A stretch of DNA of 64,000 nucleotides from the IMG/VR virus record IMGVR_UViG_3300020294_000004; one strand, written 5' to 3'. The translations under genes were made by a program, and so were the position numbers. A model generated the notes under the pieces. The model worked only from the letters and a program-made list of their open reading frames with translations. It did no database searches and had not been told where the DNA came from. The stretch's first letter is position 1; each line of letters begins with the position of its first letter. This DNA is from an uncultured virus (IMG/VR IMGVR_UViG_3300020294_000004) (taxonomy: Duplodnaviria; Heunggongvirae; Uroviricota; Caudoviricetes; Crassvirales). Positions 26,124-63,155 of the stretch are shown one piece after another.

Positions 26124-27836
26124 ATGCAGACAACAGAGATCAATGGATTTTTGATTGATAACTTTAATCAATACAGTCTAGATACAAAGGCCACACAAGG
26201 TATATGCCCGTGGTCTGATGAACATAGAAAACCTGAAAATAGAAAGAAAAAATGTTCTTCTTATGATTGGGAACGTGGTCTTGGTACTTGTCATAACTGC
26301 AATAAAACATATCAATTACATACTTACAAGCGTAAAGGTGATAGTGAAAAAAATTATATTCGTCCAGACTCATTAGAAACTAATAAGCCTGTAGGATCAA
26401 AAATAATTGATTGGTTTAAAAGCAGAGGTATATCTCAGAAAACTCTCAAAGATTTAAATGTCTCTGAGGGTTCTGAGTATATGCCACAAACAAATAAAAA
26501 AGAAAACGCTATTAAATTTAATTATATGATAGGTGGAGAACTTATTAATATAAAATACAGAGATGGTAGAAAAAACTTTAAACTATATAAAGGAGCAGAA
26601 AAAATATTTTATAATATTGATAACATTGTTGGGTATAATGATTGTTATATTGTGGAAGGAGAAATGGACGTTTTATCTTTTTATGAAGCTGGCATACCTA
26701 ACGTGGTTTCTGTACCAAATGGAGCTACTTTAAACTCTAATAATTTAGACTATTTAGATAATTGTATAGATTATTTTGATAACAAAGAAAAAATAATATT
26801 AGCAGTTGACAATGATGAAGCAGGCCAAGCACTACAACAAGAATTAATAAGACGTCTTGGTGCAGAGGTTTGTTATATTATAGATTTTGAAGACTGTAAA
26901 GACGCTAACGAATACTTATTAAAACATGGAAAAGAAAACTTTCTCAGCTGCATTTCAAAGGGAAAACCCGTGCCTTTGGAAAATGTTACAACATTTAAAG
27001 ATATTGAGACAGAGATTACAGACTTTGTACAACATGGTTTTAAACCCGGTTATCAAGTGGGTCTCAAAAACTTTGACAAAATTTTTTCGACTTATACCGG
27101 ACAGTTTATTACTGTTACTGGCATACCTAGCAGTGGTAAGTCTGACTTCGTGGATCAAATGGTGGTCGGATACAACGTAAATTATAAATGGAAAACAGCT
27201 TTTGCATCACCTGAAAATGCACCTACATATTTACATGCACATAAACTTATGCGTAAAGTGTGGCAAGATATGCCTACACCTGGAGATATAAATACAACAC
27301 AGTGGAATAAAGTTGCAGAACATATTAATGATAATTTCTTTTTTATTGATATGGAGCGTTATACTTTAGAATCTGTATTAAAAAAAGGTGCAGAGCTTGT
27401 TAAAAGAAAAGGTATAAAATGTTTAGTTATAGATCCATTTAATAAAATCAGAGATGTTGATTGTAAAACAGAAGATGTTAATCGTTATACTATGGAATAC
27501 CTTACAAAAATTGAGGTATTTGCTAAAAAGTTTGATGTATTAGTTTTTATTGTAGCACATCCTACAAAAATGTATAGAGATAAAGATGGTAAGCTTGAAG
27601 AACCTAATATGTATAATATTAAAGGTGGAGGTGAGTGGTATGATGCTAGTTACCATGGTATATTAGTACACAGAAACTATGAAGAAAAAACAGTTAAAGC
27701 TAAAGTATTAAAAGTTAAATTTCAAAACTTAGGTGAAAATGGTGCTGAAGCACATTTTAAATGGGAACCTAAATCAGGATGTTTTATTCCTCATGAAATT
27801 AATAAAGATGTAATTGATATAATGCCATGGGATTAA
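26124..27836 (+). CDS. primase-helicase (T7 gp4/Twinkle-like)
   Basis: Zn-binding CP...CHNC; TOPRIM EGEMD, DND.AG, KDAN; SF4 helicase G.PSSGKS, VIDP, VAHP. Confidence 0.93.
   Translation: MQTTEINGFLIDNFNQYSLDTKATQGICPWSDEHRKPENRKKKCSSYDWERGLGTCHNCNKTYQLHTYKRKGDSEKNYIRPDSLETNKPVGSKIIDWFKSRGISQKTLKDLNVSEGSEYMPQTNKKENAIKFNYMIGGELINIKYRDGRKNFKLYKGAEKIFYNIDNIVGYNDCYIVEGEMDVLSFYEAGIPNVVSVPNGATLNSNNLDYLDNCIDYFDNKEKIILAVDNDEAGQALQQELIRRLGAEVCYIIDFEDCKDANEYLLKHGKENFLSCISKGKPVPLENVTTFKDIETEITDFVQHGFKPGYQVGLKNFDKIFSTYTGQFITVTGIPSSGKSDFVDQMVVGYNVNYKWKTAFASPENAPTYLHAHKLMRKVWQDMPTPGDINTTQWNKVAEHINDNFFFIDMERYTLESVLKKGAELVKRKGIKCLVIDPFNKIRDVDCKTEDVNRYTMEYLTKIEVFAKKFDVLVFIVAHPTKMYRDKDGKLEEPNMYNIKGGGEWYDASYHGILVHRNYEEKTVKAKVLKVKFQNLGENGAEAHFKWEPKSGCFIPHEINKDVIDIMPWD
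26926..27180 (+). CDS. putative overprinted (+1 frame) small membrane protein within the primase-helicase
   Basis: 84-aa ATG ORF; host gene shows a local C/G-ending codon shift; hydrophobic C-terminal segment. Confidence 0.4.
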   Translation: MEKKTFSAAFQRENPCLWKMLQHLKILRQRLQTLYNMVLNPVIKWVSKTLTKFFRLIPDSLLLLLAYLAVVSLTSWIKWWSDTT

Positions 27837-28099
27837 AAAATAAATATGCTAATCCATTACCACAATATTCAGCAGGTTCTGAAGAAAACAAATGGTATAG
27901 GTATTGTGTTAACAACAATATAAGAATATCACAAAAACCTGTTGATGGTGAAAAAGGAAAATGGTATATTACAGTAAGTTTAGGACCGTATAAAAAAGGT
28001 GAAACATCACACGTTTCTCCATCAATTTATACTCAAGACAATATAATGGAATCTTATTATCAAATGTGTAAATATTATTATGACAAACGTAAAAAATAG
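27827..28099 (+). CDS. hypothetical protein
   Basis: 90-aa ATG ORF. Confidence 0.6.
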   Translation: MGLKNKYANPLPQYSAGSEENKWYRYCVNNNIRISQKPVDGEKGKWYITVSLGPYKKGETSHVSPSIYTQDNIMESYYQMCKYYYDKRKK

Positions 28100-28733
28100 T
28101 TTTTTAAACGCAGACAAAGTTTTTAAATATTTTTACAAAAAAATAATTAAAGACGGTATAAAGTATGGAGATACTAAAGCTTTATTTAATATAGGTTTTT
28201 ATATTAAAAACCCAAGCGATGTTGATATTACTCATGAAGGAAGAAACTGGAATAAAAAATATGCGCAAGCTGAATGGGAGTGGTATTTAACTGAAGATCC
28301 TCATATATCACAACTAGGTGAAATATATGGTAATGTACCACCAATTTGGGAAAAAATGCAAGACTCAGAAGGTAAATGTAGGTCTAATTATGGTTGGCAA
28401 TGGAGTAGAAATTATCAATTAGATCATATTGTAGCTATGTTAAAAAAAGTTAAAGATACAAGGCAAGCTGCTATAAGTATTTATGATGGTAAAGAAATAA
28501 ATACATATACAAAAGATACACCATGTACATATGCTGTACAGTTTAGTATAGTTAATAATAAATTAAACATGGCTGTGTTAATGAGATCTAATGATTTATG
28601 GTATGGATTTTGTAACGATCAGTACTGTTTTTCTATGCTACAAAAGCTTGTATCACAAAGAATAAATGTGCCTATAGGTACATATTATCACTTTGCTCAT
28701 AACTTACATTTATATAATAATAAAATCAAATAA
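28080..28733 (+). CDS. thymidylate synthase-family enzyme, T4 gp42-like dCMP hydroxymethylase/methylase
   Basis: EWEWY, P.IW, SNYGW, catalytic PCT, RSNDLWYGFCND with Asp at the ThyA Asn177-equivalent position. Confidence 0.8.
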   Translation: MTNVKNSFLNADKVFKYFYKKIIKDGIKYGDTKALFNIGFYIKNPSDVDITHEGRNWNKKYAQAEWEWYLTEDPHISQLGEIYGNVPPIWEKMQDSEGKCRSNYGWQWSRNYQLDHIVAMLKKVKDTRQAAISIYDGKEINTYTKDTPCTYAVQFSIVNNKLNMAVLMRSNDLWYGFCNDQYCFSMLQKLVSQRINVPIGTYYHFAHNLHLYNNKIK

Positions 28734-28738
28734 AACTT

Positions 28739-29512
28739 ATGTATTACTTATATCATATACCTGGTAAAAAAATAGGAGTGACACGTAATCTTAATACAAG
28801 AGTTACACTTATACAAGGGTATAAAGAAGGAGAGTATGAAGTTCTAGAAACTAGTGAAGATATAGATTATATATCTGAAAAGGAGATAGAACTTCAAAAG
28901 TCTTATGGCTATAAAGTTGATAGACAACGTTATAATAAATTAATTAATTCTAATAAAATGAAAATAAATATAACAGAGCAAACAACAACATTTCCATGTT
29001 CTCTACAAGATCTACCTGCAATGTTGAATGATGCTAAAGGTACTGAGTGGGATACATCACATGGTACATATATAATTTCAGATGAAACCATGTATTGGAT
29101 TATACAAAATGCTAAAAAATCTATGTATAATGAAGATAGATCTTATATATATAATAAAGCTTACTATGAAGCGTTTTTAACTACAGAAACAAAAGTTAAA
29201 AAATGTAATAAAAAACCTTTAAAAATGTTTCAACAAATTAGAGATTGGGCTGAAGAAAAAGGTATATATGAAAAAGGTAACATACACGTTCAGTATATGA
29301 AATTACAAGAAGAAGCTGGTGAGCTAGCAGAAGCTTTGTTAAAAGATAATCAAGAAGAAATTATAGATGCTATAGGTGATATTGTTGTAGTTTTAACTAA
29401 CTTAGCAAATCAAAGAGGTGTACATATAGAAACTTGTATATCAAGCGCTTACAATGAAATTAAAAACAGAACAGGTAAAATGGTAAACGGAACATTTGTA
29501 AAAGATAAATAA
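28739..29512 (+). CDS. GIY-YIG-like N-terminal domain fused to a MazG-like NTP pyrophosphohydrolase
   Basis: N-terminal YYLYHI..KKIGVT.NL..R; C-terminal KLQEEAGELAEA...DAIGDIVVVL. Confidence 0.75.
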   Translation: MYYLYHIPGKKIGVTRNLNTRVTLIQGYKEGEYEVLETSEDIDYISEKEIELQKSYGYKVDRQRYNKLINSNKMKINITEQTTTFPCSLQDLPAMLNDAKGTEWDTSHGTYIISDETMYWIIQNAKKSMYNEDRSYIYNKAYYEAFLTTETKVKKCNKKPLKMFQQIRDWAEEKGIYEKGNIHVQYMKLQEEAGELAEALLKDNQEEIIDAIGDIVVVLTNLANQRGVHIETCISSAYNEIKNRTGKMVNGTFVKDK

Positions 29513-29513
29513 T

Positions 29514-29783
29514 ATGAAATTAAATACAAAAGATGATATAGTAAAGGCTGTTATTAAAAAAATGGATCAGCGTAGTTTAGTTGGCCAAAAAAAATATGGT
29601 CGTACAATGATGTCTGAAGTTAAAGAAGGTAAAAAAGGATTACATGAATTTTTAGTTGATGTACAAGAAGAAATAATGGATGCATTATTATATATTGAAG
29701 CTGCTAAACAATGTCTACAAGATGAAATAGAAGAAGGAGTATTAAAACATATTCATGTAGATTATGAAGAAGTTTCGCCGTAA
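29514..29783 (+). CDS. small all-alpha nucleotide pyrophosphohydrolase-like protein
   Basis: G.KKYG...QEEIMDALLY acidic helix motif. Confidence 0.5.
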   Translation: MKLNTKDDIVKAVIKKMDQRSLVGQKKYGRTMMSEVKEGKKGLHEFLVDVQEEIMDALLYIEAAKQCLQDEIEEGVLKHIHVDYEEVSP

Positions 29784-30210
29784 AAAAGGACCTGTACAGT
29801 CTAAAAAAATATCACATGATGGTATTAATTTTGCTTCAGGTCTTGAAAAATACATGTATATAGCTTTAAAAAAAGCTAGAATACCTGTAGTTTATGAAGG
29901 ACAAACTTATGAAATATTTTCAGGGTTTGATTTTCCTCATGAATCTTATGAAAGGTGTGGTAATGGTAAAGGAGATTACAAAAATAGAGGTAATAAAAAA
30001 ATTCTTAACATTAAATACACGCCGGATTTTATAGGTAAAGGTTTTATAATTGAAACTAAAGGAAGAGCAAATGAAAGTTTTCCTTTACGTTGGAAAATGT
30101 TTAAAAAATACATAGTAAACCATTTACCTGGTGTTACTCTTTACAAACCACAAAATCAAAAAGAATGCGATATAACAATAAAGCTGATACAAGAAACAAA
30201 AAACAATTAG
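29764..30210 (+). CDS. T7 endonuclease I-like Holliday junction resolvase
   Basis: FASGLE...YE...YTPDF...IETKG. Confidence 0.8.
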   Translation: MKKFRRKKGPVQSKKISHDGINFASGLEKYMYIALKKARIPVVYEGQTYEIFSGFDFPHESYERCGNGKGDYKNRGNKKILNIKYTPDFIGKGFIIETKGRANESFPLRWKMFKKYIVNHLPGVTLYKPQNQKECDITIKLIQETKNN

Positions 30211-30335
30211 CTAGACAAAAATATGCCGAAAGACAAATTGATAAATGGGTAAAGTGGAGAGAAGAATATAAAGGTTTTATCCTATATAAAGATCTTGTAG
30301 AAATGCAAGACAAGTTTAATATAAAATGCTATTAA
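30165..30335 (+). CDS. hypothetical protein
   Basis: 56-aa ORF translated by hand, MRYNNKADTRNKKQLARQKYAERQIDKWVKW... Confidence 0.5.
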   Translation: MRYNNKADTRNKKQLARQKYAERQIDKWVKWREEYKGFILYKDLVEMQDKFNIKCY

Positions 30336-30336
30336 A

Positions 30337-30480
30337 ATGAAAGAAAGAAGTTGGGAGTTAACATTAGGTTTTTATCCCGGTATACTTATAGGTATAAGAT
30401 CTTACGATCACAAGGGATCTGTACAACACGTTATTTATTTACCGTTTGTCGACTTGTGTTTAGAAGTTTTTAAAGATTAA
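30337..30480 (+). CDS. hypothetical protein
   Basis: 47-aa ORF translated by hand, MKERSWELTLGFYPGILIGIRSY...YLPFVDL. Confidence 0.55.
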   Translation: MKERSWELTLGFYPGILIGIRSYDHKGSVQHVIYLPFVDLCLEVFKD

Positions 30481-30499
30481 ATAAATTAAATTAAATATT

Positions 30500-30745
30500 A
30501 TGAAAAAATTATTTTACTTTAGTATAATAATACTATTAACCTCATGTGCTGGAGGACAATTATTTGTTGAAGCTAGGACAACTTACGATATACCATTAAA
30601 CAATGATGGTCAGTTTGATAAAGATCAAATGGATTTTCAACAAGGGTTAAGACCTTTTAATCCTCAAGTTAGACTAACATACAGACATTATATATTTGAT
30701 AACAAACGTTATCCTAAATCCAGACCATATAAACTAAAAAAATAA
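30500..30745 (+). CDS. lipoprotein
   Basis: MKK, hydrophobic stretch, then LLTSC lipobox. Confidence 0.65.
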   Translation: MKKLFYFSIIILLTSCAGGQLFVEARTTYDIPLNNDGQFDKDQMDFQQGLRPFNPQVRLTYRHYIFDNKRYPKSRPYKLKK

Positions 30746-30747
30746 AT

Positions 30748-31716
30748 ATGGGATTATTTGATCAAAGAATACATTATAAACCATTTGAATATCCTGAATA
30801 CTATAATGATGGATGGTTAAAACAAGCACAAGCTTTTTGGTTACACACAGAAATACCTATGTCAAGTGATGTTAAAGACTGGCAAGAAAAACTTACTGAT
30901 GGTGAAAAAAATTTAGTAGGTAATATATTACTAGGTTTTGCACAGACAGAGTGTGCTGTATCAGATTATTGGACACAAAAAGTTGTAGGTTGGTTTCCTA
31001 AACATGAAATACAACAAATGGCTATGATGTTTGGATCACAAGAAACAATACATGCGGTAGCTTATTCTTATTTAAATGAAACACTTGGTCTTGAAAATTT
31101 TGAAGCGTTTTTACAAGACGAAGCAACAATGGAACGCTTTGATAATTTAATTAGTTATGATGGAAACGACACCACAGGAATTGCAAGAAGCATTGCAATC
31201 TTTAGCGCCTTTGCTGAGGGCGTTAGTCTTTATTCTGCCTTTGCTGTTTTATATAGTTTTCAACTCAGAAATCTTTTAAAAGGTATAGGTCAGCAAATGA
31301 AATGGTCTGTTAGAGACGAATCTTTACATTCTAAAATGGGTTGTAGGTTATTTAGACATATGTGTGAAGAGGATGATTCACTTTTAAATAAATGTAAAAA
31401 AGATGTTATTAATGCAGCAAACGCAATGCTCGTCGCAGAAGAAAAATATATTGATAAAATGTTTGAACAAGGAGATATTGAAAACCTCAAATCCTACAAT
31501 CTTAAACAATTTATCAGAAAAAGACTTAATGAAAAGCTCGTGGAACTCGGTTACAGGAACGAACGGGAGCACTTTGATTATAACAAAAACGCAGCAAAAA
31601 AACTTGATTGGTTCTACCACCTTACAGGAGGGCATACTCATACTGATTTTTTCGCTGTTAGGCCTACTGATTATTCAAAAGCGAATGAGGGCGAAGATTT
31701 TGAAGATATATGGTAA
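30748..31716 (+). CDS. nrdB: ribonucleotide reductase class I beta subunit
   Basis: KPFEYP, FW..EI, ETIH..AYS, EG..LYS.F, RDE.LH, DFF..R.T.Y. Confidence 0.95.
   Translation: MGLFDQRIHYKPFEYPEYYNDGWLKQAQAFWLHTEIPMSSDVKDWQEKLTDGEKNLVGNILLGFAQTECAVSDYWTQKVVGWFPKHEIQQMAMMFGSQETIHAVAYSYLNETLGLENFEAFLQDEATMERFDNLISYDGNDTTGIARSIAIFSAFAEGVSLYSAFAVLYSFQLRNLLKGIGQQMKWSVRDESLHSKMGCRLFRHMCEEDDSLLNKCKKDVINAANAMLVAEEKYIDKMFEQGDIENLKSYNLKQFIRKRLNEKLVELGYRNEREHFDYNKNAAKKLDWFYHLTGGHTHTDFFAVRPTDYSKANEGEDFEDIW
31157..31279 (+). CDS. putative overprinted (+1) membrane peptide within nrdB
   Basis: MMETTPQELQEALQSLAPLLRALVFILPLLFYIVFNSEIF; local GC-rich synonymous codons. Confidence 0.35.
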   Translation: MMETTPQELQEALQSLAPLLRALVFILPLLFYIVFNSEIF

Positions 31717-31738
31717 AAAGAAATATAATAAAATGTAG
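31403..31738 (+). CDS. putative overprinted (+1) membrane protein within the nrdB 3' end
   Basis: 111-aa ORF; CTC/GTC/CGG codons in nrdB avoid +1 stops; TM segment followed by a basic tail. Confidence 0.45.
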   Translation: MLLMQQTQCSSQKKNILIKCLNKEILKTSNPTILNNLSEKDLMKSSWNSVTGTNGSTLIITKTQQKNLIGSTTLQEGILILIFSLLGLLIIQKRMRAKILKIYGKKKYNKM

Positions 31739-31889
31739 TCAATGTGACGCAGAGTTTCCTAGTGGTGTAGAGTATAGAGAACATTGGGAAGAAAAACATT
31801 TTTATCCTTATTTAAAAAATGGTAGCTTTGATACTAAAAGAGCTTTAGCTGAAGAACAATCAGTAAAAATTTATAATGAGAACTTGTAA
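31710..31889 (+). CDS. C2H2 zinc-finger protein
   Basis: Translated by hand, 59 aa: CSQC-x3-F-x5-Y-x2-H-x4-H. Confidence 0.65.
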   Translation: MVKRNIIKCSQCDAEFPSGVEYREHWEEKHFYPYLKNGSFDTKRALAEEQSVKIYNENL

Positions 31890-32226
31890 TATATGTAAAA
31901 AAACAAAAAAAGATTCTAAATTTAAACACGAATATAAAAAAACTTGTATGCGTTGTGAGTTTAGATGGAAAAGATCTTTTTTAAGATTATTAGTACATGA
32001 TAGAAGATTAAGCGCAAAAGAACGAATAGCAAATAGATTAGGATATATGGGTACAGCATTTATTATGGTAGGCCCTTATTTGTTACCACAAGGAAACATA
32101 GGTGTTGTTTGTTATATTTTAGGAGGTTTAATTTCCATACCTCAAGTGTGGGTAGCAAAACAATGGAATTTAGTTTTAGTAAACATTAATGTAATTATAG
32201 GTTACACAATATATTCAATGCAATGA
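31876..32226 (+). CDS. Zn-ribbon plus membrane domain protein
   Basis: CNIC...CMRC followed by three hydrophobic segments. Confidence 0.6.
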   Translation: MRTCNICKKTKKDSKFKHEYKKTCMRCEFRWKRSFLRLLVHDRRLSAKERIANRLGYMGTAFIMVGPYLLPQGNIGVVCYILGGLISIPQVWVAKQWNLVLVNINVIIGYTIYSMQ

Positions 32227-32453
32227 AAGAAAGTAAATTAATAGGTAAATTAAACGAAACAGATAAAAAAATTAATGCTATAAGTAGAGTATTACAAAGA
32301 TTAATTCAAGATGTTTCTAAATTAGAAACTTTAGCTAATGGAACATTAAGTTCTTTACAAATGTTTATGGGTGAAGATGAATGGAATAAACTTGTAGAAA
32401 AAATGAAAAAACTACAAGAAAAAAATAAAGAAAAAAAACTAGAAACAAAATGA
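32223..32453 (+). CDS. hypothetical coiled-coil protein
   Basis: 76-aa ORF with ATGA overlaps. Confidence 0.6.
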   Translation: MKESKLIGKLNETDKKINAISRVLQRLIQDVSKLETLANGTLSSLQMFMGEDEWNKLVEKMKKLQEKNKEKKLETK

Positions 32454-32824
32454 AAAAACTAATAATATTATTTTTATTTTTATCAAACAGTTTATTTAGT
32501 CAAAACACTTTACAAGATTTTGAAGGTATATGGTCTTCACCTTATTCATATTGGTATAAAATTTTTACATACAATGAAAAAGATGATATATTAGAAATAT
32601 ATACTTTTAGTTTTGGAGATCCATCAGCTGTAGTAGAAAAAATAGTTAAAATAACTAGTAATTATGCTATTGATACTAAATTAATAAACCATGATAATAG
32701 ATGGAAAGTAAATATAACATATCGTATGTTAGAAAATAAAAAAATAATAGCTACTTATACAGGTGATATAAACACTATAGCAGAACTAACAAAAGCAACT
32801 TTAAAATTAAATCATGTGGAATAA
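32450..32824 (+). CDS. secreted protein
   Basis: MKKLIILFLFLSNSLFS-Q signal peptide, with Gln at +1 as is typical of Bacteroidota. Confidence 0.65.
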   Translation: MKKLIILFLFLSNSLFSQNTLQDFEGIWSSPYSYWYKIFTYNEKDDILEIYTFSFGDPSAVVEKIVKITSNYAIDTKLINHDNRWKVNITYRMLENKKIIATYTGDINTIAELTKATLKLNHVE

Positions 32825-34532
32825 CGATTGGGTAAAAGGTGAAGATTATCCTTCTTGGGGTAATAATGATATATACAAACAAACAATATCTGGCGGATAT
32901 TTATTTAACGGTGAATCACCTCGTGATGCTTATATGCGTGTAGCTAAAACGGTAGCTAGACGTTTATATAAACCAGAACTAGCTGATAGATTTTTTGAAT
33001 ATATATGGAATGGTTGGCTTTGTTTAGCTTCACCTGTCTTATCAAACACAGGTACAGATAGAGGTTTACCAATAAGTTGTTTTGGTATTGATGTTGCTGA
33101 TAGTATAAATGATATAGGAAAGAAAAATTTAGAAATGATGTTACTTGCAAAACACGGCGGCGGTGTAGGTATAGGCATTAATATGATTCGCCCTGCCGGA
33201 GCTAAAATTACAGGTAATGGAACTTCAGATGGCGTTGTCCCTTTTTGCAAAATATACGACTCAACTATACTCGCGACCAATCAGGGTTCCGTTAGAAGAG
33301 GAGCTGCAAGCGTTAATATCAACATTGAACACAGTGATTTCCTCGAGTGGTTGGAAATTAGAGAACCTAAAGGAGATGTCAATAGACAATCTCTTAACCT
33401 TCACCAGTGTGCTGTCATTGGCGATAAGTTTATGCGAAAGCTTGAGCAAGGAGATCAAGACGCAAGAAACAAATGGAGTAGATTACTTCAAAAACGTAAA
33501 GCAACTGGAGAACCATATATCTTATTTAAAGGAAATACAAACAAAGCTAATCCAGAAGCATATAAGAAAAACAGTTTAAAAGTACATATGACTAATATAT
33601 GTAGTGAAATAGTATTACAAACAGATGAATCTCATAGTTTTGTTTGTTGTTTATCTAGTTTAAACCTAGCTAAATATGAAGAGTGGAAAAATACTAACAT
33701 TATTTATGATTCAATATGGTTTTTAGATGGTGTGTTAGAAGAGTTTATACAAAAAGCAAAAGGTAAAATAGGTTTTGAAAATTCAGTTAGATCTGCTGAA
33801 AAGGGTAGAGCATTAGGTTTAGGAGTTTTAGGTTGGCATACTTATTTACAAGAAAAAAATATACCATTTGAAGGGCTATTGGCACAATATGAAACTAGAA
33901 AAATATTTAGTCAGATAAAAATAGAATCTGATCGAGCAAGTAGAAACTTAGCTGAAACTTATGGAGAACCTTTATGGTGTGTAGGTACAGGCATGCGTAA
34001 TACTCATCTTAGAGCTATAGCACCAACTGTTAGTAATAGTAAATTATCAGGTAATATATCACCAGGTATTGAACCATGGGCCGCTAATGTATTTACAGAA
34101 CAATCAGCTAAAGGTACATTTATTAGAAAAAACCCTACACTTATAAAGTTATTAAGAAAGTATAAACTCAACACAAATGAAATTTGGGATAAAATACTTG
34201 AAGACGGAGGTTCTGTACAGAATATTAGAGAACTTGATGATATTATGTTTAATAACAACATATCGGCTAAAGAAGTTTTTAAAACATTTAAAGAAATTAA
34301 TCAATTAGAATTAATAAATCAAGCAGGATTAAGACAACAATATGTTGATCAATCTGTATCTCTTAATTTAGCTTTTCCTTCTGAAGCAACACCTAAATGG
34401 ATTAATAAAGTACATTTTGATGCATGGAAAAAAGGTATTAAAACTTTATACTATATGAGAACTGAATCTGTTCTTAGAGGTGATATTGCTGCTTCTGCTA
34501 TGGATGAAAACTGCTTAGCTTGTGATGGTTAA
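32814..34532 (+). CDS. nrdA: ribonucleotide reductase class I alpha subunit
   Basis: SPVLSN, ISCF, QG..RRGA, TNICSE, CCLSSLN, AIAPT.S, DQSVS.N, KTLYY, C-terminal C..C. Confidence 0.96.
   Translation: MWNNDWVKGEDYPSWGNNDIYKQTISGGYLFNGESPRDAYMRVAKTVARRLYKPELADRFFEYIWNGWLCLASPVLSNTGTDRGLPISCFGIDVADSINDIGKKNLEMMLLAKHGGGVGIGINMIRPAGAKITGNGTSDGVVPFCKIYDSTILATNQGSVRRGAASVNINIEHSDFLEWLEIREPKGDVNRQSLNLHQCAVIGDKFMRKLEQGDQDARNKWSRLLQKRKATGEPYILFKGNTNKANPEAYKKNSLKVHMTNICSEIVLQTDESHSFVCCLSSLNLAKYEEWKNTNIIYDSIWFLDGVLEEFIQKAKGKIGFENSVRSAEKGRALGLGVLGWHTYLQEKNIPFEGLLAQYETRKIFSQIKIESDRASRNLAETYGEPLWCVGTGMRNTHLRAIAPTVSNSKLSGNISPGIEPWAANVFTEQSAKGTFIRKNPTLIKLLRKYKLNTNEIWDKILEDGGSVQNIRELDDIMFNNNISAKEVFKTFKEINQLELINQAGLRQQYVDQSVSLNLAFPSEATPKWINKVHFDAWKKGIKTLYYMRTESVLRGDIAASAMDENCLACDG
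33217..33579 (+). CDS. putative overprinted (+1) helical protein within nrdA
   Basis: 120-aa ATG ORF; nrdA uses CTC/GTC/ATC/GCG here, unlike its flanks. Confidence 0.5.
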   Translation: MELQMALSLFAKYTTQLYSRPIRVPLEEELQALISTLNTVISSSGWKLENLKEMSIDNLLTFTSVLSLAISLCESLSKEIKTQETNGVDYFKNVKQLENHISYLKEIQTKLIQKHIRKTV

Positions 34533-34537
34533 AATAA

Positions 34538-34567
34538 TAAAGGGAGATCAATTAAGACCTCCCTTTA
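34538..34567. terminator. bidirectional intrinsic terminator between convergent arms
   Basis: TAAAGGGAGATC-AATTAA-GACCTCCCTTTA hairpin. Confidence 0.8.
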
Positions 34568-34596
34568 TGCAGGAACTTTGGGGGTGGAATCCCATT

Positions 34597-34875
34597 TTAT
34601 CGTGTTCCTTTTTCTAATTTATTAATGACAGTTTTTTTATTAATAATTCGTTTATTTTTACTTGATGTTATCTTAATGTAGTCCGTTGTTATTTTTTTTT
34701 TGATGACAATTATTACGTCTTCATTATCATAAACTTTTTGAATAACATTAATTATTGGATTATCTTTTTGTGAATCCAACCACTGTGTTTTTTCAGTAAT
34801 ATCTTTTTCTGATATTAACTTACTACTTCCACAACTACTTAAAAATAACAATAGTATTATTGTTAATTTTTTCAT
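34597..34875 (-). CDS. lipoprotein (spanin candidate)
   Basis: MKKLTIILLLFLSSC lipobox; next to the endolysin. Confidence 0.55.
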   Translation of the reverse strand: MKKLTIILLLFLSSCGSSKLISEKDITEKTQWLDSQKDNPIINVIQKVYDNEDVIIVIKKKITTDYIKITSSKNKRIINKKTVINKLEKGTR

Positions 34876-34885
34876 AATTATTTAT

Positions 34886-54080: not shown

Positions 54081-54086
54081 AGTTTA

Positions 54087-54845: not shown

Positions 54846-54860
54846 GTGTATTTTTTATTA

Positions 54861-54891
54861 TAATAAAGGAGGCATTACACCTCCCTTATTA
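54861..54891 (-). terminator. stem-loop (terminator or mRNA stabiliser)
   Basis: Reverse complement TAATAAGGGAGGTG-TAA-TGCCTCCTTTATTA. Confidence 0.6.
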
Positions 54892-54901
54892 GTATTACAT
54901 A

Positions 54902-55672: not shown

Positions 55673-55697
55673 GATATAATATAATTAAATAGTTAAT

Positions 55698-55736
55698 GTA
55701 AAGGCAGGAGCACCATTAAGATGCTCCTTTCTTTAC
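55698..55736 (-). terminator. stem-loop after the major capsid gene
   Basis: Reverse complement GTAAAG-aa-AGGAGCATC-TTAAT-GGTGCTCCT-gc-CTTTAC. Confidence 0.65.
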
Positions 55737-55743
55737 TAAAAAA

Positions 55744-57192: not shown

Positions 57193-57209
57193 AATTTATT
57201 TATTTATTT

Positions 57210-58490
57210 TTAATTAAACGTTTTTCTTTTTATTTTTAACTTTGAAGAATCAACACCACTAATTGCTTTTACTTTTAAACCATTTACAAATAATTCACCT
57301 GAAGCTGTTTTACGAGGTTCAGTTGTTATATTTTTAGATTTAGCCATCTGTTCTTTTAATGCATCAGTTTTACCTTGTTCATAAAAGTGATTAGCAATAG
57401 TATCAGCATTTCGTGCAGCAAATAAAGCTTTGTGGTATCCTTTAGCGTCAGTTACATCTCCTTTTTCATTTAAGAACGTCTTAATAAAGTTTGATATATT
57501 ACTTTGACTTTGGGCCACTGATGAAGGGTCTTTAATACCATATCTGAATTTTTTTTCTCCTAATTTAAAATCAAAACCTTTGAATTCTTCGTTGAGAAGG
57601 TTTTTTGTTTCAGATACAAACCTTTCATGACTAGCTTCACGTGCTTTTTGTTCTTCATTATAGCGATTAAAAAAGTCATTAGCTTTTTGTTGGTCCTGTG
57701 TTATGCCGGGTCTCAACTTGATTTCGTCATAATACTTTGTTTTTAGGTCCTCTAAATAGTTTTTGGCTTTTGCTATCTCTTCTTTATAAGCAAGTTTTTT
57801 CTTTTTTATATCTCGCTCATCATCCACCTCAGTATCAAATCTAAAAGAATCTTCAATTATAAAGTTTCTTTCTTCAGCGTCTAAATGAGGTTTAGCTTGT
57901 TTATAATATTCATGAAGTAATACATCATTATTTACGTTTGTATAATCAGCATTTAAACGGGCATAATCTTGTACGTCACCACCCGTTTCTTCCATGAATT
58001 TTATTAATTTTTCTATGTTTTCAGGTAACTTTTGTGTTTCAGTTTCCTGTGATATTTTTTCTTGTTTCGATGTGGTAGCGGTAGTTTCATCGCTTCCTGC
58101 CACTCTTGTCTTGTCAGTATTATCTTCTTCATCTGTTATTAATTGTAAAGGTGAATCAGATTCTTCTTTTATTTCTTCAGATTCTTTTTTATCTGTAACA
58201 TCTTGAATGGTGTCTTGTACTTGTTCGTCCACCTTAGCGCTATCTCCGGCTTGTTCGCCCACATCCACCTTCTTTGTTTCTCCGACTGGAATGGCATCTT
58301 CTTTTGGTTTTTTAGTTAAATCTACTTTTACTAAATCAGGTATTATTTTTTCTTCACCTAATTGTTTTGGCTTAGTTACTTTTTTTATTTTAAAACTACC
58401 TTCTTCTTTTGGAGGTGTTGTATTTGTAGCTTGTTCTTGTTTAGTTTCTTTTACAGGTTCTTCAACCATTACTTCTTCTTTTTGTGACAT
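57210..58490 (-). CDS. capsid scaffolding protein
   Basis: Acidic disordered N-half and helical C-half, between portal and MCP; start placed at MSQKEE. Confidence 0.7.
   Translation of the reverse strand: MSQKEEVMVEEPVKETKQEQATNTTPPKEEGSFKIKKVTKPKQLGEEKIIPDLVKVDLTKKPKEDAIPVGETKKVDVGEQAGDSAKVDEQVQDTIQDVTDKKESEEIKEESDSPLQLITDEEDNTDKTRVAGSDETTATTSKQEKISQETETQKLPENIEKLIKFMEETGGDVQDYARLNADYTNVNNDVLLHEYYKQAKPHLDAEERNFIIEDSFRFDTEVDDERDIKKKKLAYKEEIAKAKNYLEDLKTKYYDEIKLRPGITQDQQKANDFFNRYNEEQKAREASHERFVSETKNLLNEEFKGFDFKLGEKKFRYGIKDPSSVAQSQSNISNFIKTFLNEKGDVTDAKGYHKALFAARNADTIANHFYEQGKTDALKEQMAKSKNITTEPRKTASGELFVNGLKVKAISGVDSSKLKIKRKTFN
58013..58132 (-). CDS. overprinted (+1) small basic protein within the scaffold gene
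   Basis: MKKIILTRQEWQEAMKLPLPHRNKKKYHRKLKHKSYLKT. Confidence 0.6.
   Translation of the reverse strand: MKKIILTRQEWQEAMKLPLPHRNKKKYHRKLKHKSYLKT
58169..58297 (-). CDS. overprinted (+1) small basic protein within the scaffold gene
   Basis: MPFQSEKQRRWMWANKPEIALRWTNKYKTPFKMLQIKKNLKK. Confidence 0.7.
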   Translation of the reverse strand: MPFQSEKQRRWMWANKPEIALRWTNKYKTPFKMLQIKKNLKK

Positions 58491-58515
58491 AATATAATAA
58501 TATAAAATTAATAAT

Positions 58516-60933
58516 CTATTGTGGAGCAAACTGCTCTAAACCAAATCCATCTAAATTATCATTACCAGCACTTTCAAAATTTACAGGTAATGTATCATTT
58601 TGTCTTTGATTTATTAATTCACTCTCTTGAGTTCCTTGCATTTGTACGCGTTTGTCTTTTCTATCTTCTATTTCTGTTTCTTTTTGACGTTTTGTTTGAG
58701 ATCTCATTTCTTCAAGCTGTATGTTATATCTAAATTCTTCAGCCATTAATTGTTTTTTAATTAATGCTTCTTGTTCCATACGTTGTATCTCAAATTGAGA
58801 TTTTGCTTGTTCTATTTGAACTTCGGTATCAGCTAATGCTTGGTTTTTTTGTACTTCTGCCATTGCAGCTTTTTCAGCTGACTGTGCATTGGCAGCTGCT
58901 TGAGCTTGTATATTTTCTAATTGTTGTGCTCTGTCTTTTTCTTGCTTTTGTTTTTGCCTTAACTTAAGCATTTGATTAGCAAGTTTAATATTTTTTATTT
59001 CTCTTAAATCTATTGCATCTTCTAAACCTATATTTTTAGCTTGTAATGCAATTTGTATACTTTGTTCTAGTTGAGCTTTTTCTTCTTCATCAGGTTCAAG
59101 TTCTAAAAATATACCAAAATCATGTAAAGATAATTTTTCAACTTCTTCTAATGTTGCTGTATTAAAACCATTTATACTGTTTATTAAAGACTGTTTAGTT
59201 GTTGGAAACTGTAACATATCTGATACTCTTAAACTAATATTTTCACAAACTCTTACAGTTAAATACATTAATGCTTGTAACACATGTCTTGTAGCTGTAT
59301 TAGAATTAGCAGCTGCAAGCTTTTGTAAACCAACTAAAGCATTTTTATCAGGCGTGCTACCATCTCTTGCTTCATTAAGCCCGGTTACATCTCTTATCAT
59401 TTGTAAATAATATTGATAAGTTTGTATCATTGACTGTATTTTAGACATGCCTGAAGACGTCTGTAATTCTTGCACCGGTACTTTACCTCTATTTAAATCA
59501 CCATCTTGAGTTAAAGATCTTCCTACTACACTACCTGTTTGAAAATACATATTTAACGCTTCAGCAGGATTATAATTTGTACCATTACCTAAATCAACTT
59601 CGGCTAACCCATCAACATCTAAATAAACACCATCAGGTACTAACCTTGATATTACTTGTTGTAGTTTTAAATGAGTTAATTGAATCATATCTGCAAATCC
59701 AACTGTTTTACTTACAATAGATTCTATACGGCCTTGATACATTCTAGGTGAACTAATAACGTAATTCATATTAACTTTAGTCGTATCACCAAAAGGCCTT
59801 GTCATGTTTTCACTTAATTCCCATTTTAAAAGATTATTACCAAGACCTAAAACTTTAGCTCCAGTATATAATACTTCTATTGATCTTGATATTCTATTAA
59901 AGTTATCACTAGGTGGTGGATTAAATGTATCTGGTTTTTCTAATGTTTTTTCTAAACCTTGTTCTGTTTGTTTTATTTTAAAAACTTGATCTTGATAAGT
60001 TTTATATTCAAAATATAATATTTGTACTTGATCTTTAGTGTCTTGGCCCCACCAAGTGTTTTCTAGATATGTATTTCTACCAGGGTATTTTTGTATTTCT
60101 TCTAATTCTGAATCTGTTAAATAAGGAAATTGTCTTTTAACTTCTGATAATGACATACTTTTAACCTCACCTACATAATATATATCTTCAAAATTTGGAT
60201 CATCAGTATATGAATATACTAAATTAGCTGGATTTACATAATCTATAGTTATTCCTTCAGATAAATTAAAATCAGTTTTAACACAACCTATACCTAAAAC
60301 AGTTAGATCGTATGCTAATTGTTTTTTTACTTGATCATATTTATTATAGTCTAAAATATTATTTATAACTTCTTCTTCTGCTATTTCAACACTTTGTTTA
60401 AAGTTTAATTGTAAATAAAGATCTAATTCTTCTGTAGTTCCTGGTAAATCATCTGGTGATGCTGAAGCAAATAAATTAGCATTAGGGCCTAATTGAGCTT
60501 GTAATGCTTCAATCATTTCTTTATTTTCAATATCTCTTATAGCATTTTGAGCAAATGTAGTTTTATTTTTTATAGCAAATGGATCTTGAGCAAAAGATTT
60601 TATTTCATAACCTTTTTGTGTCATACCATTTACTACTATATCTACAAACTTAGATAATATTGGTACAGGCTTCCAATCTAAATTTAAATAAGATAAATCA
60701 CCATTTATAGCTAATTCATCTTTATATTTTTGTACTGGTTGTTCTCCTCTAGCGTAAAGTCTTAGTCTATTAAAATTTTGAAAATTATTAATATATCTAT
60801 TTTGACCACTAGAGTTTTTAAACCACTCATATTCAATTGCTTGGGCTACTTGTAAACCATACTCTTTTGACTTTTTCTCTTCTTCAGGTACCACCTGATC
60901 TGGAAAAGCACTGTTATAGTTAATATTAACCAT
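58516..60933 (-). CDS. portal protein
   Basis: 805 aa directly after terminase; LDWKPVPI..KFVDIVVNG, TGLNEARDG, Q-rich C-terminal coil. Confidence 0.8.
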   Translation of the reverse strand: MVNINYNSAFPDQVVPEEEKKSKEYGLQVAQAIEYEWFKNSSGQNRYINNFQNFNRLRLYARGEQPVQKYKDELAINGDLSYLNLDWKPVPILSKFVDIVVNGMTQKGYEIKSFAQDPFAIKNKTTFAQNAIRDIENKEMIEALQAQLGPNANLFASASPDDLPGTTEELDLYLQLNFKQSVEIAEEEVINNILDYNKYDQVKKQLAYDLTVLGIGCVKTDFNLSEGITIDYVNPANLVYSYTDDPNFEDIYYVGEVKSMSLSEVKRQFPYLTDSELEEIQKYPGRNTYLENTWWGQDTKDQVQILYFEYKTYQDQVFKIKQTEQGLEKTLEKPDTFNPPPSDNFNRISRSIEVLYTGAKVLGLGNNLLKWELSENMTRPFGDTTKVNMNYVISSPRMYQGRIESIVSKTVGFADMIQLTHLKLQQVISRLVPDGVYLDVDGLAEVDLGNGTNYNPAEALNMYFQTGSVVGRSLTQDGDLNRGKVPVQELQTSSGMSKIQSMIQTYQYYLQMIRDVTGLNEARDGSTPDKNALVGLQKLAAANSNTATRHVLQALMYLTVRVCENISLRVSDMLQFPTTKQSLINSINGFNTATLEEVEKLSLHDFGIFLELEPDEEEKAQLEQSIQIALQAKNIGLEDAIDLREIKNIKLANQMLKLRQKQKQEKDRAQQLENIQAQAAANAQSAEKAAMAEVQKNQALADTEVQIEQAKSQFEIQRMEQEALIKKQLMAEEFRYNIQLEEMRSQTKRQKETEIEDRKDKRVQMQGTQESELINQRQNDTLPVNFESAGNDNLDGFGLEQFAPQ

Positions 60934-63155
60934 TAATTTAGTATTTTTGAAGTTACTCCTTTATTATTATACTTTTTAAAGTCTAAAGGTAAATTATTTA
61001 TAGTTCTTTTTACTGTTGGTGTATATCTGTTTTTATTACAAGCCATAATAGCTAAGCCAGAACTTATGGAAGCATCGTGTTTAGTTCTATTATTTATATT
61101 AAACTTAGCCCAGTCTTCTAGTGTTCTTTGAAAATACATATCACCATATCTTTCATTATTAAATCCAATAAAATTTTCAATATAATCTTCTATCGCAGCT
61201 GCATGTGCTTGTTTTATATCTTCACTTGAATTAGGTATACCACCTATTTCTCTTTCTGTAACAGATAATTTATTATATACTTTATCAGGACGATTCATAG
61301 AATAACCTCTATAACCTCTTCTTTTTAAATAATATAATAATCTAGGTTTATTATTTTCTGCAAGTAATGGCATACCATAAAAAACTAAAGCCATTAAAAC
61401 ATCTTCAAAAAATATTTCTGCTGTTTGAGGTCTTGCAATATATTCTAAAAAAAATAAATTAGGTGGTACATCTTCCATTGAAAACTTAGTTAAACCATGT
61501 AAAGAAGCTTTTGAACCTCTACCATCAACTGTTCCTGAAATATCATATGGATCACAACCAAAAGCACCAGTATGATCGTTACCTGGATATTTAACACCAT
61601 TTTTTATAATATACTTGTTTTGTAAATTATCATTAGGTACCCAAGAAACTAAAAATCTACCATTATTATTAGGAATAAATATAACTCTACTATCTTTAAT
61701 CCCATTTTCCCATTGAAAATTACCTTTTGTAATTACATTTGTATTTCTTAAATCTTCATTATAATCAATTTGTTCATAAATTTTAGTTAGATTAAATAAA
61801 GATTGTTTTGCTTCATCTCTAAAAGCGTGTTTTTCTGTTCTAGGAAATTGTCTATAAAATTCATTTAAACCGTCTTGATCATTTTTTAAACCTTCAACTT
61901 CGTTTTCCCAGTGTGAGATAACGCCAATTTCAATGTTGGATCCGTCAATACTTTTGACCGGTTTTTTTGGAGTTTCGAATACAGGAAACCCATAAGTATT
62001 AAGGTATCCTTCGTAGTTCCATTCCATAGGTATGAACAAACTATATAATCCTGAATTAGTCTGTCCGTTGCGGTTTCTTTTTGTAACATCTGACGCATCA
62101 TATAATTTTTTAAAATTATTACCTCCTTTATCTAAAGCATTAGATGTAGATCCCATCATACACCTACCTATAATTCTACTACCTAATCTTAGCGTTGTCT
62201 TCGTGACCCTCCAGTTGTTGAGGATGTTATCTGGCCTCTCCCACTTGCCCGATTCATCGTGTGCGAGGAGTTTGAGTTTCTCCCCGTCGTATGAGTTGTC
62301 ACCGGTATTCTTCCAGTCGATCGTGGTATCGAGCCCAACGAGTTCCTCGGGACGTTCATTCTGATCGATCTTACGCCTTGTGAACTTCGACGCGGGTACA
62401 CGATATGCAAGTTCCGTTTTGGGACGATCCATACCGTCCTGTATCGGTTTAAAAAAGAATGGGTAATTAACGGATATTGGTACCACTTTGTCTGTAAACA
62501 TTTTCTTCGCATCTGCTCCAGTCTTTGATAATATCCCGTACCGTGAATCACTAGATATTGTTGCCTGGTGTACGAGTTCTGATGAGGCCATAAAAGAAAA
62601 TCCCGATCTTCTATTCTTGAGATAGCACATTCCATAGGATCTGGTATCAAGTTTACAGGCTTCCCAAAATATGAAAAAGATTCTATTGGCTTCTCTGAAT
62701 TCCGCGTTGCCAACATCAATTTTTGTCCACTGCAAGTACATATAATGAGACCCAGTAATATAGCTAGGAATACCTTTGTTATAGAAACAAAAGCCTTCTT
62801 CACGTCTTTTAAACTCTTCGTCAATATAATCATACCAAGTATTTTTAAAATCTAATGATGTTTGGTTCCAATCAAAAACTGTTTTAAGTTTTGATAATTG
62901 TTTTGGGTACTCAAATATTTCCCAATATTGATCTGTTTTATTTACAGATCTTTTATATACATTTTCACTTAAAGGTAAAGCTATTTTTAAACCCTGTATT
63001 TCATATATTTCACCTATTTTACCTGTTTTACTTATAACAACTACATCGTGTTCTTTGTTATAACCTGGTTCCCATTTTTTATACCTATTATTATTTTTTA
63101 TAATTTTAGGTTTTATATGATTAGGTAAAATTTTATATAAAGTGTTTGTATACAT
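60933..63155 (-). CDS. terL: terminase large subunit
   Basis: Walker A-like KNRRSGFS, Walker B HDESGK, GST, nuclease GCDPYD...ENN...HD. Confidence 0.88.
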   Translation of the reverse strand: MYTNTLYKILPNHIKPKIIKNNNRYKKWEPGYNKEHDVVVISKTGKIGEIYEIQGLKIALPLSENVYKRSVNKTDQYWEIFEYPKQLSKLKTVFDWNQTSLDFKNTWYDYIDEEFKRREEGFCFYNKGIPSYITGSHYMYLQWTKIDVGNAEFREANRIFFIFWEACKLDTRSYGMCYLKNRRSGFSFMASSELVHQATISSDSRYGILSKTGADAKKMFTDKVVPISVNYPFFFKPIQDGMDRPKTELAYRVPASKFTRRKIDQNERPEELVGLDTTIDWKNTGDNSYDGEKLKLLAHDESGKWERPDNILNNWRVTKTTLRLGSRIIGRCMMGSTSNALDKGGNNFKKLYDASDVTKRNRNGQTNSGLYSLFIPMEWNYEGYLNTYGFPVFETPKKPVKSIDGSNIEIGVISHWENEVEGLKNDQDGLNEFYRQFPRTEKHAFRDEAKQSLFNLTKIYEQIDYNEDLRNTNVITKGNFQWENGIKDSRVIFIPNNNGRFLVSWVPNDNLQNKYIIKNGVKYPGNDHTGAFGCDPYDISGTVDGRGSKASLHGLTKFSMEDVPPNLFFLEYIARPQTAEIFFEDVLMALVFYGMPLLAENNKPRLLYYLKRRGYRGYSMNRPDKVYNKLSVTEREIGGIPNSSEDIKQAHAAAIEDYIENFIGFNNERYGDMYFQRTLEDWAKFNINNRTKHDASISSGLAIMACNKNRYTPTVKRTINNLPLDFKKYNNKGVTSKILN
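61886..62101 (-). CDS. possible overprinted (+1) ORF within terL
   Basis: 71-aa ATG ORF in the same +1 frame as 62189..62833. Confidence 0.3.
   Translation of the reverse strand: MMRQMLQKETATDRLIQDYIVCSYLWNGTTKDTLILMGFLYSKLQKNRSKVLTDPTLKLALSHTGKTKLKV
62189..62833 (-). CDS. putative overprinted (+1) membrane/lipoprotein within terL
   Basis: 214 codons without a stop; strong GC rise at about 62190-62480; basic-hydrophobic-Cys N-terminus. Confidence 0.55.
   Translation of the reverse strand: MIILTKSLKDVKKAFVSITKVFLAILLGLIICTCSGQKLMLATRNSEKPIESFSYFGKPVNLIPDPMECAISRIEDRDFLLWPHQNSYTRQQYLVIHGTGYYQRLEQMRRKCLQTKWYQYPLITHSFLNRYRTVWIVPKRNLHIVYPRRSSQGVRSIRMNVPRNSLGSIPRSTGRIPVTTHTTGRNSNSSHTMNRASGRGQITSSTTGGSRRQR

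Follow-up and report, generated by a model that had tools for sequence, protein, structure and literature searches.

Nested +1-frame open reading frames in core genes of an AT-rich uncultured phage are mostly kept free of stop codons across dozens of relatives

The DNA analysed in this study (the window) is a 64,000-nucleotide stretch of the uncultured virus record IMGVR_UViG_3300020294_000004 in IMG/VR, a segment of an AT-rich phage genome (~30% GC). Eight open reading frames (ORFs) are nested within five of its core genes, namely terL, nrdA, nrdB, a primase-helicase gene and a putative scaffold gene. Most of the eight are probably genuine protein-coding genes, read from the same strand as, and in the +1 frame of, the essential phage genes that enclose them. 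Across relatives whose synonymous sites have turned over, selection keeps these frames free of stop codons and maintains the positions of their ATG and stop codons.

All eight ORFs proposed in an earlier, sequence-only reading of the window were borne out, each running from ATG to stop on the strand of the enclosing gene at an offset of +1 (Table 1). Their lengths were compared with 1000 synonymous shuffles within each of 71 ORF-genes, in which the longest +1 ORF window-wide averaged 73.5 amino acids (aa); the 99th percentile was 115 and no shuffle exceeded 162. The ORFs of 214 aa in terL, 120 aa in nrdA and 104 aa within nrdB (111 in full) were never reached by shuffling their own genes, and the 84 aa of the primase-helicase ORF gave a per-gene P of 0.004. 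The two scaffold ORFs (39 and 42 aa) are within chance by length (P = 0.229), the 40-aa ORF in nrdB is of ordinary length, and the 71 aa of terL B are about the mean of the window-wide null maximum. The expectation that codon shuffling would not yield such lengths thus held for four of the eight ORFs, and failed for those of 39, 40 and 42 aa. Only one ORF of at least 39 aa lies in the +2 frame of the window against 21 in the +1 frame, so that long alternative-frame ORFs are here a property of the +1 frame.

The patches of C- and G-ending codons with which most of the ORFs had been said to coincide are real. In terL, the G+C content of third codon positions (GC3) is 0.30–0.67 over codons 120–330, compared with 0.00–0.17 over codons 0–119 and 420–739; the patches in nrdA, the C-terminal part of nrdB and the primase-helicase gene reach GC3 values of up to ~0.3–0.47, and in the scaffold gene GC3 is weakly raised. 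Genome-wide, G+C at the first, second and third positions (GC1/GC2/GC3) is 0.42/0.39/0.13, and the GC2 of the nested ORFs themselves is 0.25–0.46, compared with 0.13 in other +1 frames and 0.39 in real genes. Since the third position of the enclosing gene is the second position of the nested one, an ordinary amino acid mix in the nested protein pulls GC3 of the enclosing gene from 0.13 to 0.25–0.46; were the middle base nearly always A or T, the protein would be all hydrophobic or charged and full of stops. The GC3 patches are therefore the compositional cost of a second gene, and this is the source of the switch to C- and G-ending codons. In lineages that have broken or shortened a nested ORF, the patch reverts to AT-rich sequence past the break.

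Relatives were drawn from IMG/VR, where at least 599 stretches encode a relative of terL; the best 80, with 74–91% amino acid identity, were used, and all 80 were codon-aligned over terL. A stop in the +1 frame requires an xTA codon of the enclosing gene before a purine, or xTG before A. The +1 frame is stop-free in 28/79 relatives for terL A, 52/69 for nrdA and 23/39 for the primase-helicase gene, and over conserved cores in 57/64 relatives for the C-terminal part of nrdB and 76/80 for terL B. That relatives keep the frames stop-free, on which the sequence-only reading depended, was confirmed, with ratios of observed to expected +1 stops (O/E) among all diverged relatives of 0.04–0.35 for the candidates as opposed to mostly 0.8–1.1 in control segments. 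The controls were 14 other +1 open segments of 31–64 codons in seven genes, of which eleven gave O/E values of 0.77–1.69 and three of 0.43–0.63; in the comparison with these 14, the listed candidates hold the four lowest values (0.25–0.35).

The avoidance of stops is specific to context. In the terL patch of relatives bearing terL A, xTN codons before a purine end in A in 1% of cases, whereas those before a pyrimidine do so in 36%, and every other comparison gave 41–52%. The sequences had been selected for being open, which makes the pooled frequency of A partly circular, so a per-column view weighs more. This was taken over unique open sequences, with stop-prone columns defined as xTN followed by A or G and control columns as xTN followed by C or T. 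Stop-prone columns vary freely among T, C and G (13/13 in nrdA, 15/16 in the primase-helicase gene, 18/19 in terL A, 4/4 in nrdB ORF 1 and 12/16 in nrdB ORF 2), whilst A appears in 1/13, 0/16, 2/19, 0/4 and 0/16 of them, respectively. The corresponding counts for A in control columns are 5/6, 3/3, 11/18, 5/6 and 0/2, and A is the commonest third base where no +1 stop would result. This is the pattern to be expected of selection against +1 stops while synonymous sites turn over, and codon optimisation, GC-rich mosaicism or an antisense gene would not yield it. Selective maintenance is weakest for nrdB ORF 1 and the C-terminal part of terL B. Two further +1 segments in the primase-helicase gene, at 26182–26376 (+) and 27556–27666 (+), of 64 and 36 codons, are open in 43% and 62% of relatives with O/E values of 0.57 and 0.43; these could be additional nested ORFs, or noise from few stop-prone sites.

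The natural history of the largest ORF, terL A, ties the codon patch to the nested frame. About two thirds of the terL relatives have the same GC3-rich patch and, in the same place, a +1 ORF of 145–248 aa, and about 20 relatives without the patch have a GC3 of 0.11–0.22, as in the rest of the gene, and 8–16 +1 stops. When codons were shuffled synonymously within the patch only, keeping its own codon mix, 4–8 stops were expected in terL A, where 28 relatives have none. The patch also ends where the ORF ends: in relatives whose terL A stops at codon 321 or 323 (n = 29), GC3 is 0.59–0.68 up to codon 321 and 0.18–0.21 thereafter, in those stopping at codon 293 (n = 16) it is 0.64 before and 0.25 after, and in those stopping near codon 262 (n = 8) it drops to 0.17 beyond. 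Lineages lacking the ORF also lack the rise in GC3. A raised GC3 is not sufficient to open the frame, as the control sequences L054 and L055, with a GC3 of 0.52, carry 10–11 +1 stops, and the outgroup MW202828, with a GC3 of ~0.42 throughout terL, has a longest +1 ORF of 35 aa. ATG and stop positions, which the sequence-only reading had proposed to compare, proved to be conserved where an ORF is kept and decayed where it is lost; the ATG of terL A, for instance, is kept in 27/28 open compared with 30/46 closed relatives.

On the terL tree, the full-length state of terL A is scattered through the ingroup and absent from both outgroups, with at least eight changes of the state without an ORF forced by the starred branches. 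This fits an old ORF that has been lost or replaced many times. In pairs of patch-bearing and patch-lacking relatives, TerL amino acid identity across the patch is 0.75–1.00 in each block of 40 codons, and most differences between the two states are thus synonymous. Sister pairs are near synonymous saturation outside the patch, and loss and recombination of terL alleles are not separable. Repeated loss with no change to the enclosing protein shows that several of the nested ORFs are dispensable and variable by lineage, that is, accessory.

The terL A product has an N-terminal hydrophobic helix, a conserved C-T-C-S-G motif and a long tail rich in S, T, R and G, and its copies share 37–53% identity with one another. 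The motif needs three rare G- or C-ending codons in the enclosing gene. AlphaFold2 (AF2) modelled a helix over residues 2–44, with the remaining ~170 residues predicted to be disordered (predicted local distance difference test score, pLDDT, below 50, at ~40). A search of the protein database matched 45 clusters, none of them functionally named. Near-identical short terL contigs occur in four marine RNA libraries from three studies, and over 62229–62292 most of their differences from the window fall on every third base, where terL has its third codon position, so that co-occurring strains change the terL A peptide and not TerL. A 110-aa ATG ORF antisense to terL, at 62032–62364 (+), lies within the same GC3-rich patch. 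It was rejected as a gene in favour of a by-product of the patch, with its frame stop-free in only 6/31 relatives having full terL A and in 0–1 in each other group.

terL B had been proposed as a whole ORF, and of this a conserved core of about 48–56 codons stands, at approximately codons 352–399 (window ~61955–62098). Its C-terminal part is specific to the clade of the window, and the full 71 aa are open in 11/80 relatives. The start context is good (98th percentile of internal ATGs), and GC3 over terL B is raised in all lineages.

The nested ORF in nrdA (nrdA+1) is exactly 120 aa long in nearly all of the 52 stop-free relatives. Its ATG is present in 49/52 open compared with 9/17 closed relatives, and its stop falls in the same column in 50/52. 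An all-helical model of five helices was obtained with AF2 (pLDDT 67.6, predicted template modelling score, pTM, 0.60); in a Foldseek search of this model against the PDB nothing was found at E ≤ 1e-3 and only generic helical bundles appeared, and the ESM Atlas gave no usable match. The protein database held 78 matching clusters, none naming this frame, and one chimera with a ribonucleotide-reductase name. Several database proteins (P0198, P0233, P0243, P0258 and others) join a ribonucleotide-reductase Pfam domain to the nrdA+1 peptide, and could be assembly frameshifts or real frame-joining variants.

The primase-helicase ORF (O/E 0.28) is 84, 107 or 119–129 aa long depending on the clade, retains its ATG in 23/23 open relatives and encodes a hydrophobic segment close to the C terminus; no called homologue was found in the protein database.

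In nrdB, two open stretches emerge as conserved when +1 stops and ATGs are mapped, and they differ somewhat from the ORFs first proposed. The first runs from about codon 109 (window ~31076) to codons 172–183 and encodes 66–74 aa in relatives. The nrdB ORF 1 first proposed is a truncated form of it; a +1 stop at codon 133 in the clade of the window removes the front of the ORF, leaving 40 aa. The span of this shorter ORF is stop-free in 37/64 relatives (O/E 0.23) and the long form in 26/64 (O/E 0.33). Its C-terminal half is hydrophobic, with a mean Kyte-Doolittle (KD) value over the hydrophobic window of 1.65 in open and 0.47 in closed relatives. It is the weakest of the eight. The second stretch opens with a conserved ATG at codon 260 and closes shortly after the nrdB stop (O/E 0.10), so that the conserved form of nrdB ORF 2 begins at 31529 and not at 31403 as had been proposed. 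The intervening extension (31403–31528, 42 codons) is present in the clade of the window only and has an O/E of 0.78. The 69-aa core at 31529–31738 consists of ~25 aa, a hydrophobic segment of ~20 aa and a basic tail, ends 22 nucleotides beyond the nrdB stop, keeps its ATG in 50/57 open relatives and has a KD of 1.83 in open and 0.41 in closed relatives. At loci L133, L141, L143, L148 and others, nrdB ORF 2 runs on into an acidic "...ITEEEIYEDLY..." tail and appears as an N-terminal extension of the downstream small gene. As it reads into the frame of the next gene in these relatives, the comparison suggests that nrdB ORF 2 may have arisen by upstream extension of its neighbour.

The two scaffold ORFs, s42 and s39, have the best amino acid support of the set, judging from alignments, despite their chance-like lengths. 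s42 has the N-terminal motif MPF[QK]SxKQRRxMWANxPExAxxW and matches PHROG 1375, with E = 3.3e-4 for the window copy and matches for 10/16 aligned homologues (best 9e-6). It was found by tblastn in 28/80 loci, where the scaffold frame is only 15–37% identical, and a profile search recovered 3527 representative proteins at E ≤ 1e-3, of which 534 were at E ≤ 1e-10. Among the 150 matches listed, the motif is at residue 1 in nearly all, with lengths of 42–502 aa. Over identical nucleotides, identity in the frame of s42 is 0.61 compared with 0.50 in the scaffold frame (own frame higher in 22/23 relatives). s39 is exactly 39 aa in 13/14 closer relatives and was found by tblastn at 53–95% identity in 15/80 loci, two of those being interrupted by stops. 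Identity in its own frame is 0.76, as opposed to 0.57 in the scaffold frame and 0.58 in the third frame (14/14 relatives); scans of Pfam and PHROG gave no family match.

Enclosing proteins elsewhere have an amino acid identity of 0.8–0.97 within the patches. The exception is the region over s39 and s42, where the scaffold frame is conserved no better than the third frame and yet stays open. By these comparisons the nested frame is the constrained one, and the K/E-rich N-terminal region of the scaffold is merely open. As s42 is constrained and belongs to a large existing family, it did not arise de novo; the scaffold ORF may have grown over s42, creating the overlap. The idea of systematic overprinting is thereby upheld for most of the ORFs, by selection in relatives, and qualified for s42, where overprinting may run the opposite way. 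Of 25 loci examined, 24 have s42 nested in the +1 frame and one (L200) has it joined in frame to the scaffold core; the scaffold frame is open upstream of s42 in 24/25 relatives. At L200 (631–1816) the K/E-rich segment forms an ORF of its own (76 aa), and a scaffold protein of 347 aa has the s42 motif as its in-frame N terminus, whereas at L214 (1058–2212) and in the window the two are joined the opposite way.

Synonymous codon identity, compared between diverged open sequences with correction for composition, was contrasted between each patch and the rest of its gene (Table 1). The prediction of synonymous constraint was clearly upheld for terL A and the terL B core, modestly for nrdA and the primase-helicase gene, and failed for both nrdB ORFs. 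For the nrdB ORFs and the primase-helicase ORF, selection is shown only on openness and hydrophobic character. Selection at the amino acid level is accordingly moderate, and uneven across the ORFs.

Table 1. Nested ORFs and enclosing genes of the window, with the excess of synonymous identity in patch and rest of gene
Feature	Position	Strand	Type or match	Details	Excess, patch vs. rest	Pairs with patch > rest
terL A	62189..62833	-	+1 ORF	214 aa, nested in terL codons 107-321	0.155 vs. 0.044	120/120
terL B	61886..62101	-	+1 ORF	71 aa, nested in terL	0.192 vs. 0.046 (core)	116/120 (core)
nrdA+1	33217..33579	+	+1 ORF	120 aa, nested in nrdA codons 134-254	0.092 vs. 0.050	87/120
nrdB ORF 2	31403..31738	+	+1 ORF	111 aa in window	0.031 vs. 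0.032 (core)	57/120 (core)
nrdB ORF 1	31157..31279	+	+1 ORF	40 aa in window	0.040 vs. 0.034	59/120
Primase-helicase +1	26926..27180	+	+1 ORF	84 aa	0.103 vs. 0.079	79/120
s42	58169..58297	-	+1 ORF	42 aa, variable N-terminal part of scaffold		
s39	58013..58132	-	+1 ORF	39 aa, basic, same scaffold region as s42		
Primase-helicase	26124..27836	+	Toprim_2 and DnaB_C (Pfam)	enclosing gene		
nrdB	30748..31716	+	PF00268	enclosing gene		
nrdA	32814..34532	+	PF02867, PF00317	enclosing gene		
terL	60933..63155	-	phrog_6681, E 5.5e-162; relatives annotated terminase large subunit	enclosing gene, 740 aa		
Putative scaffold	57210..58529	-	position directly after portal gene	enclosing gene, 439 aa from TTG		

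Regarding the products, terL A, the primase-helicase ORF and both nrdB ORFs look like single-pass membrane proteins from their sequences. In open relatives, hydrophobic 19-residue windows have mean KD values of 1.65–2.27, with T at the third base of the enclosing codon at a frequency of 0.60–0.63. nrdA+1 is predicted by modelling to be a helical bundle, and s42 and s39 would be short basic peptides adjoining head-assembly genes. Among phages, small membrane proteins commonly have roles in lysis timing, exclusion or manipulation of the host envelope, though this is by analogy only. Scans of all eight products against Pfam and PHROG found nothing other than the family of s42. Translation of the nested genes would begin internally on the mRNA of the enclosing gene, each at its own ATG, yielding small accessory proteins; such initiation is plausible where genes lack a Shine-Dalgarno signal and have A-rich leaders. 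In the window, the 53 genes of at least 80 aa that start with ATG are of this kind, having no Shine-Dalgarno motif and only A-rich leaders with A enriched at −3, −5, −6 and −12, as expected for a phage of Bacteroidota, the candidate host. A Bacteroidetes-type promoter pattern had one match in the window compared with 4.75 expected, and none near the nested ORFs.

Several points weigh against the view that most of these ORFs are genes. The relatives behind all of the counts share ancestry, so the counts cannot be treated as independent trials. A number of the ORFs are interrupted in many relatives, terL A by at least three stops in 46/79, and in the terL B core each sequence offers only ~2 stop-prone sites (1.28 stops expected). 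The terL A product is for the most part of low complexity and predicted disorder, and searches of families, structures and the atlas returned no known function or fold for any product. Scoring of start contexts lends the internal ATGs no general support, as most of them score below annotated genes, with nrdA+1 and terL A at the 28th and 56th percentile of internal +1 ATGs. The terL contigs from RNA libraries are uninformative on frame, strand and ends, and may be DNA carry-over. The corrected excess of synonymous identity is absent for both nrdB ORFs and marginal for the primase-helicase ORF, and for terL A raw synonymous identity is 0.54 in the patch, below the 0.62 of the remaining gene. This last difference stems from the AT-biased background being identical by chance, which inflates identity outside the patches, so that a naive scan of synonymous rates could miss nested genes.

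The best surviving alternative, albeit an unlikely one, is that the frames are translated and kept open whilst their peptides have no function of their own, selection acting on translation itself, either because ribosome traffic or mRNA protection regulates the enclosing gene or because premature termination after spurious initiation is harmful. Without a Shine-Dalgarno signal, internal ATGs in A-rich sequence may initiate readily, the products evolve fast, as the divergence of terL A copies shows, and the nrdB ORFs lack site-specific amino acid constraint, with the primase-helicase ORF being marginal. It does not account for codons being conserved site by site in terL A, the terL B core and nrdA, for motifs such as C-T-C-S-G that are conserved at the cost of rare codons, for hydrophobic segments kept in open and lost in closed lineages, for the membership of s42 in a real protein family, or for the confident prediction of helices that the nrdA+1 alignment gave.

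Programmed ribosomal frameshifting out of the enclosing gene, which would fuse an N-terminal fragment of its protein to the +1 peptide, appears quite unlikely. Stop avoidance would be equally selected under frameshifting, the poor start contexts of nrdA+1 and terL A would be explained, and two of the public chimeras (P0198 and P0233) have the expected structure, although they may be assembly frameshifts. Against this, the ATG is kept in 94–100% of open lineages and decays in closed ones, and a +1 stop usually lies 2–26 codons upstream of the ATG, leaving little room for a shift site; homologues of s42, moreover, are widely stand-alone and open with the same methionine. Both this reading and that of translation without peptide function may still hold for the ORFs lacking constraint at the amino acid level.

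That the ORFs are by-products of GC3 patches, brought in by recombination with GC-richer phages or by codon optimisation of conserved domains and giving no +1 product, is very unlikely. In its favour, all of the long ORFs coincide with stretches of raised GC3, terL alleles with and without the patch are intermingled on the tree as recombination could produce, and the antisense ORF is a clear by-product of the terL patch. The context-specific test largely refutes it, with A avoided only where a +1 stop would arise and reaching 24–49% elsewhere in the same patches, and it conflicts with the stops still expected in composition-preserving shuffles, the many stops in sequences of equal GC3, the mainly synonymous differences between terL states and the conserved ATG and stop positions.

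The enclosing genes sit in a layout in which a block of replication and nucleotide-metabolism genes runs rightward and the structural genes run leftward. The terL gene of the window is distantly related to those of Flavobacterium "elemo" podophages and an uncultured freshwater podophage, with 65–72% nucleotide identity over parts of the gene. The putative scaffold has no Pfam or PHROG match, and its name rests on its position only. Its longest ORF has a TTG start that overlaps the end of the portal gene, and the conserved peptide (MSQKEE...) opens at an ATG 13 codons downstream, which is likely to be the true start; the N-terminal third is rich in K, E and T and poorly conserved. In the left-hand structural block, 6001–8000 and 10001–12000 have 40–42% GC compared with ~30% elsewhere. 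The only other +1 ORF of at least 60 aa in the window, of 73 aa at 6900–7121 (−), lies within the gene at 5707–7443, a GC-richer one, for which there were only three diverged full-length relatives among 24 loci.

There is perhaps an even chance that a broader picture holds, in which marine podophages, AT-rich, akin to Flavobacterium phages and forming a cosmopolitan clade, carry a conserved +1 "second proteome" of at least 6–8 genes in terL, nrdA, nrdB, the primase-helicase gene and the scaffold gene, gained, resized and lost by lineage with the enclosing proteins untouched. If so, Shine-Dalgarno-independent initiation in A-rich mRNA would ease the birth of nested genes, local GC3 islands in an AT-rich genome would be a single-genome detector of them, and such genes would be widespread and systematically unannotated in AT-rich dsDNA phages. 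That the nested ORFs are the reason for the codon patches is shown by natural "knock-outs", the lineages that have lost them. Should the ORFs be translated, the coding capacity of a very abundant group of marine phages is under-counted, and marker genes such as terL and nrdA, which are used in phylogeny and codon-usage work, bear a second layer of constraint. GC3 islands together with context-specific avoidance of xTA before purines would then be a simple signature for finding such genes, and the group would offer a tractable system for gene birth inside old genes.

Nested out-of-frame genes are textbook knowledge for tiny ssDNA and ssRNA phages and are regarded as rare curiosities in tailed dsDNA phages, and annotation pipelines forbid them. 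Within the literature covered, which excluded subscription journals, no report was found of nested ORFs in the terL, nrdA, nrdB or primase-helicase genes of tailed phages. In phiX174, gene E lies within D, and the single-gene lysis genes of ssRNA phages, embedded in other genes, are likewise on the same strand, out of frame and wholly inside an essential gene (cf. PMC8227390, PMC6195259 and PMC7693330). The overprinted genes of small phages resemble those of the window in that their products are often short membrane or disordered proteins of odd composition and are missed by gene callers. In contrast, the nested ORFs here belong to a tailed dsDNA phage whose genome exceeds 64 kb and is not obviously pressed for space; they number eight, reach 214 aa and sit in five core genes, and lysis activity is neither shown nor implied for them. 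Among tailed phages, the lambda spanins Rz/Rz1 are a case of a small +1 gene inside another gene (cf. PMC6139136). The basic N terminus, hydrophobic stretch and conserved Cys residues of terL A bear a loose resemblance to a lipoprotein signal, but the enclosing genes are terL, nrdA, nrdB and primase-helicase and not an i-spanin gene, and terL A has 214 aa and not ~60. The usual lipobox has G, A or S at position −1. An Rz1-like o-spanin was thus rejected for terL A, as its L-I-[I/T]-C-T-C-S-G sequence misfits the canonical lipobox, alongside its length and its location in terL.

s42 shares the profile and N-terminal motif of PHROG 1375, a family with no assigned function, with thousands of homologues that are stand-alone or have the motif at the N terminus, and it differs from them in being nested in the +1 frame of the scaffold N-terminal region. 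A parallel to the set as a whole comes from mycobacteriophage Patience, in which mass spectrometry detected two non-conserved embedded ORFs (PMC4324244). These also lie on the same strand and in a different frame wholly inside annotated genes, one of them a replication gene, and the composition of Patience differs from that of its host (PMC4324244). The ORFs of the window are known from sequence alone and, unlike those of Patience, are strongly conserved, with dozens of diverged relatives keeping them. They stand out by their number, length and conservation, and by natural losses in some lineages that link the codon patches to the nested frames.

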